From Promethearchaeota archaeon (lineage in GTDB: Archaea; Asgardarchaeota; Lokiarchaeia; Sigyniarchaeales; SOKP01): DNA of 12,328 nt. Shown here piece by piece: positions 6,823 through 12,328 of the stretch (position 1 is the first letter of the stretch; each line of letters begins with the position of its first letter). The position numbers were made by a program, and so were the translations under genes. The stretch lies in assembly GCA_048940645.1 (NCBI GenBank), contig JBHLOI010000081.1, positions 1-12,328 of the forward strand. Reading direction: 5' to 3'. The notes beneath the pieces are model-generated. The model was not told where the DNA came from, searched no databases, and saw only the letters and a program-made list of their open reading frames with translations.

Positions 6823-8118
6823 TTAGTGGGTAGCGCAAGAAATACATGGATCAAAAGCTCTTATAATTTTTTGAATTTCTTTCTTAACTTTATCTAAATC
6901 CTTTTTTTCATAGAGTTTTCGAGCATAATTACTGATCATATAGTTAATAAGTGGGATATTTATTTCTGTTGCTATAAATAATTTAGCTTCTTCAAGAATA
7001 TTTCTTTTATTAATTCTATAATGATGAATAAGCGATCCTCTAGGGGCTTCCACAACTCCAATACCTTCTCTAGAAATAATTGATTTAAGATTTGGAAGAG
7101 GAATGGTACTTTTTAAAATAGGGTCCTTTAAAACTTTTAATAAATTTTGTGATTCAACATACATTTCAATTAATTTTAAAATGGGGGCATATAGAAGGTT
7201 ATTTCTCCATTCTTTATCAAAAAGACTTAAGTATCCAGAAATATCATCTGATCCATAACTTTCTACAACCTGATTTCGAGAAATTGGTCCAACTAAATAA
7301 TGATTTTTATTATTAAAATCAATACCCCTTATTGTAGGATCTTTATCAAAATAATCTTTATATTCTTCTAACCTAAAGTTCTGATATTTTGCTAACCCAT
7401 TTTTTATGGTTAAAATACCATCATATCTATCATAGGATTTATTATTATTTAATGAAAGGAAATTAACATTTGGGATTATAAAATCCTCTGGTGGTTTAAA
7501 CTTTGAGAATAAATCAATAAAGTTTTTAATAATCCACTCTAAATTACTTAATACTCTTAAAAGGTATTTCTCAACAATAATTATCCTTTTCCGTGATGGG
7601 CTATAAATAACTCCGCCAGGGATAAGTGTAATTGTATGGATTGATCTTCCTCCAAAAAGCTTATCTATATCATTCCCGATTTTAATAATATCATATATTT
7701 GAGAGGTTAATTGTGGATTATATTTTATTAAATCATAAATATCGATAGGTTTTGTATAAATATTAAATATATTCAATAGATCTGGAAAAGATTGGAAAAA
7801 ATAATGCATACTATGTGATTTTAATAATTCCCCTGCCATCAAGAGCCTTCTTACTAGAACAGATTGTTGATTGGCTTTTATATTATACATTTCTTCAATG
7901 CTTTTACAGCTTACTATAGTTTGAGATGCATGACATAATCCACATATTCTAGAAACAATTTTAGGGACATCTGATAACTTTTTACCCAATAAAATATTTT
8001 CAAATCCTCTGAAGGCAAAAATTTCAAATTCCACATTCGAAATCTCATCATTTTGTATATAAATTTTTACATTACCGTGACCCTCAACCCTTGTACACAC
8101 ATCAATAACTTTTTGCAT
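6823..8118 (-). CDS. mvhA: Group 3 (MvhA-like) [NiFe]-hydrogenase large subunit, atypical: L1 His->Gln, no C-terminal extension
   Basis: Motifs TRVEGHG, RGFENIL, L1 RICGLCHASQ, HSMH, GGRSIH, VGPISR, EAPRGSLIHHY and L2 RAFDPCISCATH-TAA. All four Ni/Fe Cys are present. ATG at 8118 is preferred to TTG at 8121 and is preceded by SD-like GGTGA. Assignment to 3c rather than 3b rests on gene context. Confidence 0.92.
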   Translation of the reverse strand: MQKVIDVCTRVEGHGNVKIYIQNDEISNVEFEIFAFRGFENILLGKKLSDVPKIVSRICGLCHASQTIVSCKSIEEMYNIKANQQSVLVRRLLMAGELLKSHSMHYFFQSFPDLLNIFNIYTKPIDIYDLIKYNPQLTSQIYDIIKIGNDIDKLFGGRSIHTITLIPGGVIYSPSRKRIIIVEKYLLRVLSNLEWIIKNFIDLFSKFKPPEDFIIPNVNFLSLNNNKSYDRYDGILTIKNGLAKYQNFRLEEYKDYFDKDPTIRGIDFNNKNHYLVGPISRNQVVESYGSDDISGYLSLFDKEWRNNLLYAPILKLIEMYVESQNLLKVLKDPILKSTIPLPNLKSIISREGIGVVEAPRGSLIHHYRINKRNILEEAKLFIATEINIPLINYMISNYARKLYEKKDLDKVKKEIQKIIRAFDPCISCATH

Positions 8119-8122
8119 CAAA

Positions 8123-8881
8123 TCACCATCGTATTTTTGGTTTCGAGAATCTATAAAAGAGTGCTTTGTTTTTTATTAGATTTTTAGAGAGATTAATAAG
8201 ACTTAAAAAGTTTACCAAATTTGAGGTATAATCCTTAGATATTGGCCCTAAACATCCTTCACATGGTATTCCAAGTTCAATACATATATGATCGCAGCCC
8301 TCCCTAGTTATTGGTCCTAAGCATAAAATTCCATTATTTAAAAAGCAATTTGAATTTTCATCAAGAGCTGCTATCTCATCACCAGTAGGATTTAATTTAT
8401 AAATTGTTTTTTCAAAATGAATATTATTATTTCTTCTTAGAGGGCATGATGAGCATAGATTTTTTTCCGATAATTTTATTTCTTTATTTTCTATTAATCT
8501 TATTAAACAATTTCCTATAAGCTTTAAAGGAGGAGGACAACCAGGTATAATACCATCGATTTGGATAATATCTGATATTGCGCCTGCTTTTTTCTTTTCA
8601 GATAAACTTAAAATTCCCCCAAATGCTGCACAAGTACCTAGAGCATATACTTTTTTTGCATTATTTCTAATATCTTTTAATAATTCAATTTGTGAATCCA
8701 TCGAAATACAACCTTCTATTAAAGCGATATCGCATTCTTCAATTTTATTCTCATCAGAGATAAAGGGAAAGTAAGAAACTTTTACTCTTTCTAAAAACTG
8801 AGGAAATATATCACTTGAGATTAATTTAGAGATACATCCACTACAGGACGTCAGTGATGCGATTAAGATTTTAAGTTTCAA
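8123..8881 (-). CDS. mvhG: [NiFe]-hydrogenase small subunit (MvhG-like)
   Basis: Proximal-cluster motifs CSGC, GTCAAFGG and PGCPP. Medial/distal motifs CSSC, CFL...CLGPITREGC-x3-C-x6-CEGCLGP. TTG start with GGAGG SD at 8891-8895. Overlaps the upstream gene by 11 nt. Confidence 0.92.
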   Translation of the reverse strand: MKLKILIASLTSCSGCISKLISSDIFPQFLERVKVSYFPFISDENKIEECDIALIEGCISMDSQIELLKDIRNNAKKVYALGTCAAFGGILSLSEKKKAGAISDIIQIDGIIPGCPPPLKLIGNCLIRLIENKEIKLSEKNLCSSCPLRRNNNIHFEKTIYKLNPTGDEIAALDENSNCFLNNGILCLGPITREGCDHICIELGIPCEGCLGPISKDYTSNLVNFLSLINLSKNLIKNKALFYRFSKPKIRW

Positions 8882-11417
8882 ATCTAATTTCCTCCGTTAA
8901 TATGTTATAAAATTTATTTATTGTATTTGTAAATTTGGAACCTTCTACAGCATTCAGATTTTTTATAATAATCCTCCTACTTAATCGGGGACTTAATATT
9001 TTCTTTAACAATTTTACTTTTTTCTGAACTTTTTGAATTCCATCGATATATCTGCATGCATCTATTCTACATCCAATTACCATTACACCATCAAATCCAA
9101 ACTCAAAAGATTTAAGGATAAATTCTGTATCAATACGTCCTGTGCATGGAACTTTAATTATAAACACATTTGGATGATAGAATAATTTCTTTAATCCCGC
9201 ATCATCTGCAGCAGCATAGCCACAAGATTTACAGCAGAAAGCAAGAATCATTGGCTTTTTATTAAATTTAGAAAAAATTTCTATCGTTTTAAGTATTTTT
9301 TTGGAAGTATCAATATTCAAATCAATAGCATTTGTAGGACACACACTTACACATGATCCACAGCCTTTACATTTAAACTTATCGATATTTATTTTATCTC
9401 CTCCGATTACTATGGCATTATATGGACAAGATACTACGCATAATCCACATAACCCACACTTTTCTTCATTTATTTTAATTCCTGTAAATTCTGATACTAA
9501 GTAGTCATTTGAAAGAAGAAAGATTATTTCTAAGGCTGTTTGGTTTGTTGTTGAAATTGTAGATTTATAATTTAATGGCCCAAAAATCGTACCAACGCCA
9601 TAAATACCAGATGCTAATGTTTCTCTACTCATAAAACCATTATCATCTAAAGAAAAGTCCATGTATTTTCGAAGAGTTTTTAAGTCTTTGTTGGGAATAT
9701 ACTTAAGGTTTAATACTATCAAATCACTTGGAAATTCAGTACCGTCAGCAACAATATAGTTAATATCTTTATTATACTTAACAGAAATATGATTAGCGTA
9801 AATAAAACTAGAATTAGTTGATCGTAATAAAATCTGATCCTTATCATTTAATTTACTCAAATCATAAAAAACATTAACTTTACATTTACTATTTCTTATT
9901 TTAATATCCTCAATATATTTTTGTGCTAAAATTTCAGAGTAATCTGAGAGTAATTTTGAAGGTCCGACTTCTTGAACAATAGAAACCGAATTAACTGGTT
10001 TATTATCTGATATCCTTAATAGTTTCCCTTCTGTAATACCATCAGAAGATAATATACGCTCAAATTCAGGTGAAGTAATAATATTATTTTGAGGATTATA
10101 ATTATAATCCTTTAAATTCTCACTAAAATCTGCCCCGATAGCTATAACTTTTACACCAACCTTAATTCGAACTTTTTCTGGTTTTTTGTTTAAATTAATT
10201 GCATTATTAATACAAGCTCGTTCACAAATCCTGCAATCGAGACAATCTTCAATATCTTCGTCTTCAATCAAAGGGATATATGGATATGAATTCTGAAAAG
10301 GGATATATATAACTTTTCGAAGTGATAAACCGAAATCGAATTGATTCATTTTCTCCTTACCACAGACATTAATGCATTGTTTACAACCGGTACATTTTTT
10401 TTCATCTACATATCTAGGTTTTTTAATAAATTCAATCGTAAAATTTCCCACTTCTCCTGAGATAGTTTCAATTTCGCTATTTGTAAATATATTGATATTT
10501 TTTTCTTTAACTATTTCTCCAATCAATTCTGAAGTGAAACAAATAGAACAATCACCCATCTCAGAGATACGGTGCCATCTAGCCACTTTGCCTCCCAATG
10601 TTGGTGATTTTTCAATAAGATATACTTTTATTCCTGCTTTTGATAAATTCAGTGCTAAAGTCATACCTGCAATACCACCTCCTATTATTGCACAAGCTTT
10701 CTCAACTTCTACCGTTTTAATTTTAACTTCCTTTTGAAGTTTTACACGCTCAATTCCAGCTTCTATTAATAACTCTGTTTTTCTTAGAATTAGATCTGCA
10801 CTAACTTTTTCAAGATTTGAATCATGAACCCAACAGCATTGCTCCCTTATATTAGCAATTTCTATATTTGTATGTTCAATCACATCTTTAAAAATACGTT
10901 CAAAAATATGTTGGTGGGTTTTAGGAGAACAAGCTGCAATTACTACTTTATTTAGAAAATTTTGTTTTGCCCAAGATGAGATTTTATTTAAATTCTTTTC
11001 TTGACATAAATTATCAAATATCTTGACAGAAACAACATCATTCAACTTTGTTATATACTTCTCTAAGATTTTAATGTTAATAACATTAGAAATTTCAGTA
11101 TTACAATTACAGATTATTACGCCTATACGATTTATTATACTTCCCTTTTTATCCAAATATTCTAATTCCTCACCTGATAAAATGCGTTTGTTTAAACTTA
11201 TTATATTTAATACTCGTCTACCATCTTCTGTTAAAAAATAAGATCTTTTATCTTTACTAATCAATGACCCAAGTTTTTTTAAATGGAAATTTAATTGCCC
11301 CGTTTGGTCTAATCCCAATTTTTCCATTAAATCGGTGTAAGGAATGAATCCCTCTCTCTCTAAAAGTAATAGAATCTTTCTACGAAAAGGATGTGATAAT
11401 ATAGAGTAAATATTCAT
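8871..11417 (-). CDS. Fusion protein: ArsR-like wHTH + degenerate heterodisulfide reductase A (HdrA) + MvhD
   Basis: aa 1-~80 wHTH (LSHPFRRKILLLL...YTDLMEKLG...GQLNFHLKKL...YFLTEDG). HdrA N-domain (RIGVIICNC, AACSP, NIREQCCWVH). FAD Rossmann GGGIAG at aa 246, then DCSIC, an inserted 2x[4Fe-4S] ferredoxin, EFER, and a C-terminal 2x[4Fe-4S] ferredoxin. MvhD from about aa 722 (FCCKSCGY, VPCTGR, DGVMVIGC-x4-CRY). Confidence 0.93.
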   Translation of the reverse strand: MNIYSILSHPFRRKILLLLEREGFIPYTDLMEKLGLDQTGQLNFHLKKLGSLISKDKRSYFLTEDGRRVLNIISLNKRILSGEELEYLDKKGSIINRIGVIICNCNTEISNVINIKILEKYITKLNDVVSVKIFDNLCQEKNLNKISSWAKQNFLNKVVIAACSPKTHQHIFERIFKDVIEHTNIEIANIREQCCWVHDSNLEKVSADLILRKTELLIEAGIERVKLQKEVKIKTVEVEKACAIIGGGIAGMTLALNLSKAGIKVYLIEKSPTLGGKVARWHRISEMGDCSICFTSELIGEIVKEKNINIFTNSEIETISGEVGNFTIEFIKKPRYVDEKKCTGCKQCINVCGKEKMNQFDFGLSLRKVIYIPFQNSYPYIPLIEDEDIEDCLDCRICERACINNAINLNKKPEKVRIKVGVKVIAIGADFSENLKDYNYNPQNNIITSPEFERILSSDGITEGKLLRISDNKPVNSVSIVQEVGPSKLLSDYSEILAQKYIEDIKIRNSKCKVNVFYDLSKLNDKDQILLRSTNSSFIYANHISVKYNKDINYIVADGTEFPSDLIVLNLKYIPNKDLKTLRKYMDFSLDDNGFMSRETLASGIYGVGTIFGPLNYKSTISTTNQTALEIIFLLSNDYLVSEFTGIKINEEKCGLCGLCVVSCPYNAIVIGGDKINIDKFKCKGCGSCVSVCPTNAIDLNIDTSKKILKTIEIFSKFNKKPMILAFCCKSCGYAAADDAGLKKLFYHPNVFIIKVPCTGRIDTEFILKSFEFGFDGVMVIGCRIDACRYIDGIQKVQKKVKLLKKILSPRLSRRIIIKNLNAVEGSKFTNTINKFYNILTEEIRFET

Positions 11418-11762
11418 TTCAAAATCCTCTCTCTTTCGCTTTTATTATATTTTTTTTTTAAATTTTTAAATTTTGATAAATTTATTTTTCTTCATGATAA
11501 TGATTATTATCGAATTATTTAAATCTTTGTGAAATATTGATCATATAATTTATGAGATTCATAACTCACATTATGGATATTAGTCATTTTTCTGTTAATT
11601 TTAGATATAACTAAAAAAATTGTCCTATTAGGATTCTTGATTAAAAGATTTATCAAATTTAAAGAAATTATTCTTGTCAAATTCTTTTTATTTTGGTAAA
11701 ATAGTCATTTACTTAGAAAGTAAATTACTTGTAAATTTAAACTTAAAGAGGTGTATAGCTTA
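11418..11762. promoter_or_regulatory. Divergent promoter region between the wHTH-hdrA-mvhDGA operon and the next gene
   Basis: 345-bp very AT-rich gap. SD-like GAGAGG before ATG 11417 and GAGGTG (11748-11753) before ATG 11763. Contains several palindromes (see findings). Confidence 0.6.
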
Positions 11763-12328
11763 ATGGAAGTTTTGGAATTTAAGCCAATAAGAAACAAAAA
11801 AATCGTAGTGTATATGTCATCTAAAGAGAATGCTAAATATTTCCAAAATACTGATAACTCTAAACTTATAGAATTTTTAAAAAAAAAAAATATTGACTTT
11901 GTGACTGTTGATTTTCAGGTTGATATAAAAGAATTTAGAACAACACCATTTGCTCAAACATTAAATCAACTTGACATACCATATTTTCAATTAGATATTC
12001 CAGATTATGCTATGGGATATCTATATCAGGAAATTATTGAAAAACAACAATTTCAAAATGAATTATTTGAAGAATATGAAAATATGGAGGATAAAGAATC
12101 GTTTAAAGGGCTTAGTTTAAAAAATTGGATAGATATGTTGAGAGAAGAAATTCAGGAAAAAGAAATTTTTCTTAGTTTAAAATTGAGACCTCAATGGATT
12201 GTTAAAAAAATGTTAGATTTAGCATTATCGTACAAGAAAGATAATGTGGCATTTGTTCATTTTGTTCAAGAAGATATCTGTGAAGATATTTGTCCACAAG
12301 TAGTTGAAAATTTAAGAGAATTAAATGT
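11763..12328 (+). CDS. Hypothetical protein, truncated by the right edge
   Basis: Not in the ORF track. Open from ATG 11763 for 188 codons: MEVLEFKPIRNKKIVVYMSS...DFVTVDF...LDIPDYAMGYL...NWIDMLREEI...LRPQWIVKKMLD...AFVHFVQEDICEDICPQVVENLRELN. Strong SD upstream. Confidence 0.85.
   Translation, partial: MEVLEFKPIRNKKIVVYMSSKENAKYFQNTDNSKLIEFLKKKNIDFVTVDFQVDIKEFRTTPFAQTLNQLDIPYFQLDIPDYAMGYLYQEIIEKQQFQNELFEEYENMEDKESFKGLSLKNWIDMLREEIQEKEIFLSLKLRPQWIVKKMLDLALSYKKDNVAFVHFVQEDICEDICPQVVENLRELN

Follow-up and report, generated by a model that had tools for sequence, protein, structure and literature searches.

Why should a flavoprotein of the HdrA type carry a domain that resembles the DNA-binding part of a repressor? 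This question is raised by a gene on contig JBHLOI010000081.1 of a Promethearchaeota archaeon (assembly GCA_048940645.1), of which the whole stretch of 12,328 nucleotides (nt) was analyzed and is called the window in the following. A single uninterrupted open reading frame of 848 amino acids (aa; P0001) at 8871-11417 on the reverse strand, the first gene of an operon, encodes an ArsR-like winged helix-turn-helix (wHTH) domain followed by HdrA and MvhD. To the idea that this protein would be an enzyme-borne autoregulator, a PutA-like "trigger enzyme" sensing H2 or the redox state, the evidence described below gives slightly better than even chances.

Asgard archaea are the archaeal lineage closest to eukaryotes, and hydrogen exchange is central to current ideas on their physiology and on a syntrophic origin of eukaryotes. 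To our knowledge, nothing is known about how Asgard archaea sense H2 or their redox state, and the sole established H2 sensor that we are aware of is a kinase cascade. A DNA-binding domain on HdrA was unfamiliar to the initial annotation of this stretch, and a literature search likewise found no paper describing such a domain or a wHTH-HdrA fusion; DUF7347, the Pfam family of the winged helix, was in no paper found. While the sequences are already public, the palindrome TGAYAA-N6-TTRTCA upstream of the operon is new.

An in-frame fusion of a winged helix to HdrA-MvhD

The initial annotation had proposed an ArsR-like winged helix fused in frame to HdrA-MvhD, and there is indeed one 848-aa frame with a stop-free junction and the linker SGEELEYLDKKGSIIN as described. 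The winged helix covers residues 1-80 (11178-11417; all parts of this gene are on the reverse strand) and was delimited by Pfam, AlphaFold2 (AF2) models, Foldseek and residue conservation. Residues 81-96 (11130-11177) form the linker, directly after which RIGVIICNC follows as residues 97-105. In Pfam, residues 3-73 matched DUF7347 (PF24038) with an E-value of 1.5e-10 and 41.6 bits against a cut-off of 27.6 (46.8 bits in the genome scan), and there was a weak HTH_24 match as well. The HTH_metalloreg model of the ArsR/SmtB family (NF033788) scored 26.7 bits over residues 2-52, below its cut-off of 55.

The body of the protein exhibits the hallmark of HdrA, a flavin adenine dinucleotide (FAD)-binding thioredoxin reductase (TrxR) fold with N-terminal, inserted and C-terminal iron-sulfur (Fe-S) domains, and Pfam recognized FAD-Rossmann and ferredoxin motifs in it. 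The N-terminal Fe-S domain (approximately residues 97-230; 10728-11129) contains the invariant C103, C105, C138 and C163. The C-terminal MvhD (FlpD) domain, residues 721-848 (8874-9257), is defined by Pfam and by alignment to Protein Data Bank (PDB) chains; it matched PF02662 over residues 724-840 with 116.9 bits and has invariant cysteines at C729, C732, C758, C783 and C788. The best NCBIfam model was HdrA2 (residues 97-841; 551.7 bits against an equivalog cut-off of 1100), and the HdrA models gave 337-381 bits against cut-offs of 1300-1400, which is below equivalog level. Judged from these matches, the body is a divergent, HdrA2-like member of the HdrA-MvhD group. For the HdrA chains in the PDB (8RVU, 5ODC, 7BKB) the alignment begins only at residue 96/97, while MvhD chains cover 721-840, and the first 96 residues are accordingly an addition. 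In public records the full-length protein is named "hydrogenase iron-sulfur subunit", while N-terminal fragments are named "ArsR family transcriptional regulator", and by this split naming the fusion is hidden in the current annotation.

Distribution and age of the fusion

Absence of the fusion from all relatives would, according to the initial annotation, have spoken against it, and a contiguous match to residues 1-240 was found in about 118 of 400 genomes of the Asgard phylum, in at least nine families and at identities down to 38%. More than 100 clusters at 90% identity contain proteins of the same length with PF24038, labeled as Promethearchaeota, Loki-, Hod-, Thor-, Hermod- or Odinarchaeota. 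Collinearity with the window's protein, from residue 1 to about residue 845, extends to twenty distant orthologs of 36-63% identity. Of these, 19 have a resolved 5′ end, and in 18 of the 19 an ATG, GTG or TTG stands exactly at the N-terminus of the winged helix (the codon of the remaining one is not a listed start); the fused orthologs share the conserved N-terminus M-[DN]-[IVL]-Y..L.HP.R. Head and enzyme body diverge at an equal rate in the ortholog alignment.

Among 1.8 billion representatives at 50% identity the head occurs in about six clusters only, and all other HdrA-MvhD proteins begin at query position 96-100. One of the fused clusters comes from Bathyarchaeia and has the same three-gene operon. 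No standalone or split close homolog of the head was found, as short matches were merely fragments at contig ends. The distribution is patchy, with several complete genomes of the same genus being devoid of any ortholog. Within the genome of the window, which encodes about nine full-length HdrA paralogs and additional giant fusions, several of them with an in-frame TGA, the head is present on this paralog only. The nearest unfused relatives are located in Fdh/HdrBC-type clusters. The comparison across genomes shows a fusion that is real, ancient and under purifying selection.

An assembly chimera, which the initial annotation had named as a finding that would overturn its proposal, is thereby ruled out, as more than 100 independent assemblies, some of them single-contig genomes, have the identical architecture. 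A broader form of this objection would be a misjoined gene or a true start at M31 or at the in-frame TTG of the linker (L88, nt 11154-11156), in which case a fused protein would not be produced. In the databases there are entries of 815-819 aa whose start corresponds to M31, and a Shine-Dalgarno-like GGTGAGGAA is located 10 nt before the TTG (11154-11175, reverse strand). However, protein-level conservation of residues 1-30 extends down to 34% identity, the start codon at position 1 recurs as described above and the annotated ATG is shortly preceded by a GGAGG-like motif. An artefact is, with this, scarcely credible. One may speculate that the TTG at L88 serves as an internal start which might give a headless HdrA-MvhD alongside the full-length product.

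The head as a probable DNA-binding domain

The full protein was modeled by AF2 from a 50-sequence alignment with a mean predicted local distance difference test (pLDDT) score of 87.7. The winged helix was predicted with a pLDDT of about 86-97 and consists of helices 10-22, 27-33 and 39-52, a hairpin 53-62 and a C-terminal helix 64-81; helix 39-52 (11262-11303) corresponds to the recognition helix and the hairpin (11232-11261) to the wing. Modeled separately, the head reached a pLDDT of 87.3. A Foldseek search of the PDB with the head gave as top matches exclusively dimeric DNA-binding regulators of the ArsR, HxlR and MarR types with template modeling scores of 0.6-0.69, namely YodB, CadC, NolR (including a DNA complex), BigR, ArsR, HlyU and QsrR bound to DNA. 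Both the AF2 model and these matches exhibit the winged helix plus C-terminal helix of the ArsR/SmtB fold. The full-length model retrieved HdrA and flavoenzymes only, for which reason the head was modeled on its own.

Among 22 diverse sequences the most conserved non-hydrophobic positions are H9, P10 and R12 at the start of helix 1, T39, G40, N43, H45, K47 and K48 in the recognition helix and K55 and Y60 in the wing. H9, R12 and the positions named in recognition helix and wing are conserved to 77-100%, and the head has a mean net charge of +4.6. No polar positions of the domain are better conserved than the exposed residues of recognition helix and wing. As residues 1-96 contain no cysteine at all, and with it lack the metal- or thiol-sensing Cys/His sites of ArsR/SmtB proteins, the head is no ArsR-type thiol or metal sensor. 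A complex prediction with two copies of residues 1-96 scored 0.26 against a mark of 0.42 and speaks neither for nor against a dimer.

Winged helices are also common interaction modules in Asgard and eukaryotic proteins. The head might accordingly be a docking or assembly module rather than a DNA-binding domain, with the FrhB-like protein, a polyferredoxin or a selenocysteine-type HdrA (Sec-HdrA) among the conceivable partners, and the palindrome described below would then serve another regulator. The position of the head on the mobile arm, where partners dock, fits this alternative. There is also a precedent in BamF, an MvhD-like adaptor of the HdrA-like bifurcating class II benzoyl-CoA reductase complex (BCRII), in which a winged helix-turn-helix interfaces with BamI (bioRxiv 10.64898/2026.04.10.717634); there the winged helix differs from that of the window's protein in its position in the chain and in its partners. 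On the other hand, the structural neighbors of the head are all DNA-binding regulators, its basic and polar residues are conserved in recognition helix and wing, its net charge is positive, and it sits on a disordered tether instead of being packed onto the body. In view of this, docking as the role of the head appears unlikely, and the upstream regions bear on it further.

A recurring palindrome upstream of the fused genes

Reading the upstream regions of the orthologs revealed the recurring palindrome TGAYAA-N6-TTRTCA. In 49 loci, which are the same set of related loci on which the motif was defined, the 300 nt upstream contain 18 perfect sites and 46 sites with at least 11 of 12 matching positions when the spacer is N6. 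All other spacers from 2 to 10 gave 0-1 perfect sites and the reversed pattern gave none (one site at 11/12 or better). Coding sequences with the N6 spacer contained no site, and composition-preserving shuffles yielded on average 0.015 perfect sites. Extending the region to 1500 nt (72.9 kb in total) raised the numbers to 27 perfect sites and 58 at 11/12 or better, compared to 0 and 2 for the reversed control, with at least one site in 38 of the 49 loci. Site-bearing loci belong to the families f1, f6, f21, f19 and f31 and reach down to 38% protein identity.

The sites are frequently paired at a distance of 138-169 bp, and a weaker site is often located 21 bp, or two helical turns, away from the proximal site. 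Immediately before the latter stands ATTTATATA in 13 loci, the TATA-like sequence ahead of the palindrome occurring in the forms ATTTATATA and TTTAAATA. If this box is a TATA box, the operator would lie between TATA box and transcription start. This is the position from which archaeal repressors block the recruitment of RNA polymerase.

Within the same genus, fusion-bearing genomes contain 24 sites against 14 for the control, whereas fusion-lacking genomes contain 6 against 19; in family f19 the numbers are 13 against 1 and 10 against 11, respectively (Fisher p 0.004 and 0.01, for genomes that are not independent of each other). As far as these counts go, the palindrome is shown to be rare and spacing-specific and to come and go with the gene cluster. 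Its conservation in the operon promoters lends indirect support to a DNA-binding role of the head. Residue 41 of the recognition helix (Q, L, K, R or I) exhibited no covariation with the variants of the half-site.

With regard to docking, the fact that several fused lineages are devoid of the palindrome speaks for a role other than DNA binding. Against docking stands that the conserved cluster encodes redox proteins only, with no separate regulator or other DNA-binding protein.

Candidate operators in the window and in the rest of the genome

In the window the proximal candidate operator is located at 11495-11512, from -95 to -78 relative to the ATG, and matches at 11 of 12 positions; the TATA-like ATTTAAATAATT directly precedes it on the strand of the gene (no strand is assigned to the palindromes themselves). 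A weaker third site (10/12) at 11474-11491 follows 21 bp downstream, a spacing that is also found in several orthologous loci. The distal candidate operator (11/12) at 11638-11655 is 143 bp away from the proximal one and lies approximately 96-108 nt upstream of a divergent gene of unknown family (11751-12326, forward strand), which is cut by the contig end. In relatives this gene is the first of an operon that further encodes an Mtd-like (Mpt_N) protein and FrhB/GltD-like redox proteins, and it is a possible co-regulated target. Between the candidate operators the window also contains a 23-nt imperfect inverted repeat (11533-11581; 74% complementary). It includes TGATCATATAATTTATGA, which matches the palindrome at 10 of 12 positions and is 43 bp away from the proximal site.

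The 3.8-Mb genome of the window contains three perfect sites, compared to four for the control. Two of the three, at C77:2648 and 2817 and 169 bp apart, are located in the promoter region between a divergently transcribed frhB-like gene and a Sec-hdrA gene. The latter, at G000:C77:2574-5047 (L064), contains an in-frame TGA, as do HdrA paralogs on C13, C107 and C70, and this codon probably encodes selenocysteine; HdrA and MvhD/FrhD are known selenoproteins of Asgard archaea (PMC11227280). Synteny with a 94%-identical relative (G238:C33) makes the window contig (C31) and C77 neighbors, with approximately 6.5 kb between them. The gap between them encodes two unknown proteins, an Mtd-like (Mpt_N) protein, a DHODB-type Fe-S/NAD protein, a 928-aa FrhB-GltD-like fusion and an AAA ATPase.

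In two further genomes, G189 and G260, the frhB-like gene directly precedes the wHTH-hdrA gene, which explains why sites are found about 1.1-1.5 kb upstream in some loci. G189 has two perfect sites between the frhB-like gene and Sec-hdrA, and on a short contig of G260 one perfect and one 11/12 site lie just upstream of the frhB-like gene. The palindrome is absent from the promoters of the other HdrA paralogs in the window's genome.

The third perfect site (C54:44524) is located between unrelated genes and was treated as a chance occurrence, and additional perfect sites in two fusion-bearing genomes are mostly inside coding regions and likewise chance-like. With one mismatch allowed, the genome contains 112 sites against 93 for the control. 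As this is no enrichment, single 11/12 sites outside the cluster have to be regarded as noise. In one genome a perfect palindrome (G261:C2:51531-51548; L081) is located approximately 100 nt upstream of a metV-metF operon for methylene-tetrahydrofolate reductase. MetVF is not claimed as a target, as the orthologous promoter in the window's genome (C58:18549) contains only a 10/12 match. A second metV-metF pair (G000:C58:29288-32379) adjoins hdrC and hdrB homologs. Such an HdrCBA-MetVF-type arrangement is as in acetogens.

State of the enzyme

The operon consists of hdrA-mvhD, mvhG and mvhA in this order and does not include hdrBC. The gene of the mvhG-like small subunit (Oxidored_q6; 8123-8881, reverse strand) overlaps the end of hdrA by 11 nt and is followed by the gene of an mvhA-like [NiFe] large subunit (6823-8121, reverse strand). 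The window and 24 other fused loci were devoid of hdrB and hdrC, and the hdrBC pairs of this genome adjoin other HdrA paralogs.

In the TrxR domain the [4Fe-4S] motif CxGSR..YCSxxCC (9918-9974, reverse strand) reads VQEVGPS..DYSEILAQKY, as seen by alignment to 8rvu and 5odc and by comparison within the clade. All four cysteines are replaced, in the Loki-type subclade as well. The other Fe-S motifs of HdrA are all retained, and the conserved cysteine pair C290 and C293 is present. Judging from the position of the motif, the lost cluster would be HA4, the exit towards HdrBC. HA4 passes the high-potential electron to HdrB (PMC13580544).

The mvhA-like subunit has the L1 motif RICGLCHASQ, with glutamine for the histidine of RICGIC...H in 5ODC and 7T2R. 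It ends at the mature C-terminal histidine (DPCISCATH) without an extension, while the solved chains run approximately 25 residues further; across the fused clade such extensions have 0-13 residues. The L1 glutamine is confined to the Loki-type subclade (f1, f4, f6), whereas f19, f21 and f31 keep the histidine. The four cysteines of the TrxR domain are kept by the deep-branching fused lineages f19, f31 and f28. The head is present in f19, f31 and f21, of which f19 and f21 also have the palindrome. Loss of the cysteines, L1 glutamine, head and palindrome do, with this, not all coincide across the clade. As deep fused lineages keep both cysteines and histidine, fusion and operator predate these losses. 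The fusion arose on a seemingly complete enzyme, and in the Loki-type subclade there may have been a drift to sensing as the main role.

These features bear on another alternative, according to which the head does bind DNA, yet only as a constitutive autoregulator or tether that provides dosage feedback without any H2 or redox signal, the enzyme being purely an enzyme. Autorepression is the default for ArsR-type proteins, the disordered linker offers no allosteric route and the deep fused lineages retain all catalytic features. However, it is not obvious what would be gained from fusing a repressor to a redox enzyme if there were no signal, and the loss of the HdrBC-directed cluster and of the L1 histidine after the fusion, in the Loki-type subclade, fits a shift to sensing. 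The trigger enzyme PutA, moreover, uses the redox state of its flavin. A purely constitutive role is for these reasons judged to be quite improbable.

Comparison with known systems

The closest functional analogy is PutA of Escherichia coli and Salmonella, to which there is no homology. PutA is a redox flavoenzyme with an N-terminal DNA-binding domain that represses its own divergent operon, and reduction of its FAD releases the DNA. Its head is of the ribbon-helix-helix type, its enzyme domains are unrelated and its switch involves membrane association.

Another close system is the electron-bifurcating MvhAGD-HdrABC complex of methanogens (PDB 5ODC, 8RVU, 7BKB, 9SW2), to which the HdrA body aligns over residues 96/97-713 with E-values of 1e-94 to 6e-99, its MvhD part over residues 721-840 and the mvhA-like subunit to 5odc_F. 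FAD motif, N-terminal cluster cysteines, both ferredoxin domains and C290/C293 are present as in this complex. Unlike in the methanogen complex, there is an extra winged helix, MvhD is fused to HdrA, hdrBC is absent from the operon and its vicinity, the four cysteines of the TrxR-domain cluster are lost and the MvhA-like subunit has the L1 glutamine and no C-terminal extension. The order of the HdrA-MvhD fusion is the same as in HdrA2 of the Methanosarcina acetivorans HdrA2B2C2 complex (NCBIfam NF040770; PMC5296606). HdrA2, however, lacks the winged helix, has HdrB2C2 as its partner and is not encoded together with MvhGA.

The H2-sensing [NiFe] hydrogenases HoxBC and HupUV, which act with HoxJ and HoxA and are the closest H2 sensors, belong to group 2b and signal through a histidine kinase and a response regulator; their large subunit is reported to have a glutamine in L1 and no C-terminal extension. 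The mvhA-like subunit resembles them only in these two features. Its nearest solved relatives are 7t2r_D and the MvhA chain 5odc_F instead of group 2b regulatory hydrogenases, no kinase is encoded in the cluster, and the DNA-binding domain is predicted to lie within the complex itself, unlike in HoxBC/HupUV.

The head has the same fold as ArsR/SmtB and HxlR-type repressors (CadC 1u2w, NolR 4omy/4omz, BigR 3pqj, YodB 5hs9, QsrR 4hqe), which bind palindromic operators as dimers, and shares with them the signature HP.R..IL..L ... HLk.L. It differs from the ArsR/SmtB repressors in its weak sequence similarity (1y0u, E-value 0.067) and in being fused to a 750-aa enzyme. A regulatory link between winged helices and HdrA exists in Methanosarcina barkeri, where HdrR, a winged-helix activator, acts on hdrBCA via a palindromic promoter site (PMC11218639). 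HdrR is, however, a standalone regulator and not part of an enzyme.

A possible enzyme-borne regulator

In the PutA-like reading, the ArsR-type winged helix would be flexibly tethered to the mobile-arm domain of an HdrA-MvhD protein that works with the MvhG/MvhA [NiFe] hydrogenase. The two heads of a presumably dimeric HdrA would bind TGAYAA-N6-TTRTCA, and the bound complex would control the operon that encodes it, the divergent one from 11751 onward and the frhB-like/Sec-hdrA pair. The affinity for DNA would be set by the state of the Mvh-HdrA module, redox or conformational, and with it by H2 or by the redox state of ferredoxin.

As to how enzyme and head might communicate, the initial annotation had stated that the N-terminal domain of HdrA is mobile, and this is borne out by its being part of the "mobile arm" formed by HdrA's N- and C-terminal domains together with MvhAGD (PMC13580544). 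Its further suggestion, that redox-driven movement of this arm repositions the two heads, found no support. The 16-residue linker is predicted to be disordered, with a pLDDT below 50 at residues 84-93, and is variable among orthologs, which argues against a rigid mechanical transmission. An altered availability or avidity of the tethered heads is more plausible in light of the model. Coupling of this kind would resemble the way in which reduction of the FAD takes PutA off its operators.

Several points weigh against such an autoregulator. Given the disordered linker of the model, a coupling between enzyme state and DNA binding would be without structural support, and the winged helix on the MvhD-like adaptor of the HdrA-like BCRII complex is a protein interface (bioRxiv 10.64898/2026.04.10.717634). 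The two 11/12 sites of the window are only weakly significant by themselves (0.40 expected; 13 of 200 shuffles contain as many), the loci used for counting the motif are those that had served to define it, and its placement behind a TATA box is one that we infer from box-like sequences. In addition, the palindrome is absent from the 372-nt upstream region of the Bathyarchaeial fused loci as well as from the fused loci of f4, f28 and part of f5, f6 and f31, despite a similar recognition helix in all of these; the loci of the latter families contain other, non-matching inverted repeats only. Finally, as the excess of sites is mostly the cluster's own, the identity of the binding protein is not proven by it.

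A further-reaching version of this idea, which we regard as possible rather than probable, is that the complex would be a self-contained H2 or redox sensor with direct DNA binding. Electrons from the [NiFe] hydrogenase would enter the flavoprotein, whose state would determine if the tethered heads sit on operators located behind TATA boxes in a small regulon of redox and one-carbon genes, and the Loki-type subclade, with its lost HdrBC-directed cluster and its L1 glutamine, would have evolved from an enzyme into a dedicated sensor. If true, this would be a hydrogen-sensing route without a kinase or a separate regulator. A hydrogenase-flavoprotein complex with its own DNA-binding head would represent a new wiring for H2- or redox-dependent gene control and a rare archaeal trigger enzyme. 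The analysis provides a defined candidate operator, TGAYAA-N6-TTRTCA, and a defined domain of 96 residues.

Related loci

Besides the fused protein, the genome of the window encodes four other DUF7347 proteins, which have different recognition helices and no palindrome upstream (G000:C20:14796-15293, C20:17594-18088, C69:33232-34080 and C52:2785-4722). In these, DUF7347 is fused to predicted membrane segments (proteins of 164, 165 and 282 aa) or is part of a 645-aa protein of unknown type. Both copies on C20 are located within 10 kb of another hdrCBA-mvhD cluster.

In the Bathyarchaeial loci (L067-L072) the fused operon follows NuoE/NuoF/HoxU-like genes together with a fused small-subunit/ferredoxin protein. 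Such a gene context points to a connection with an NAD(P)-coupled hydrogenase module.

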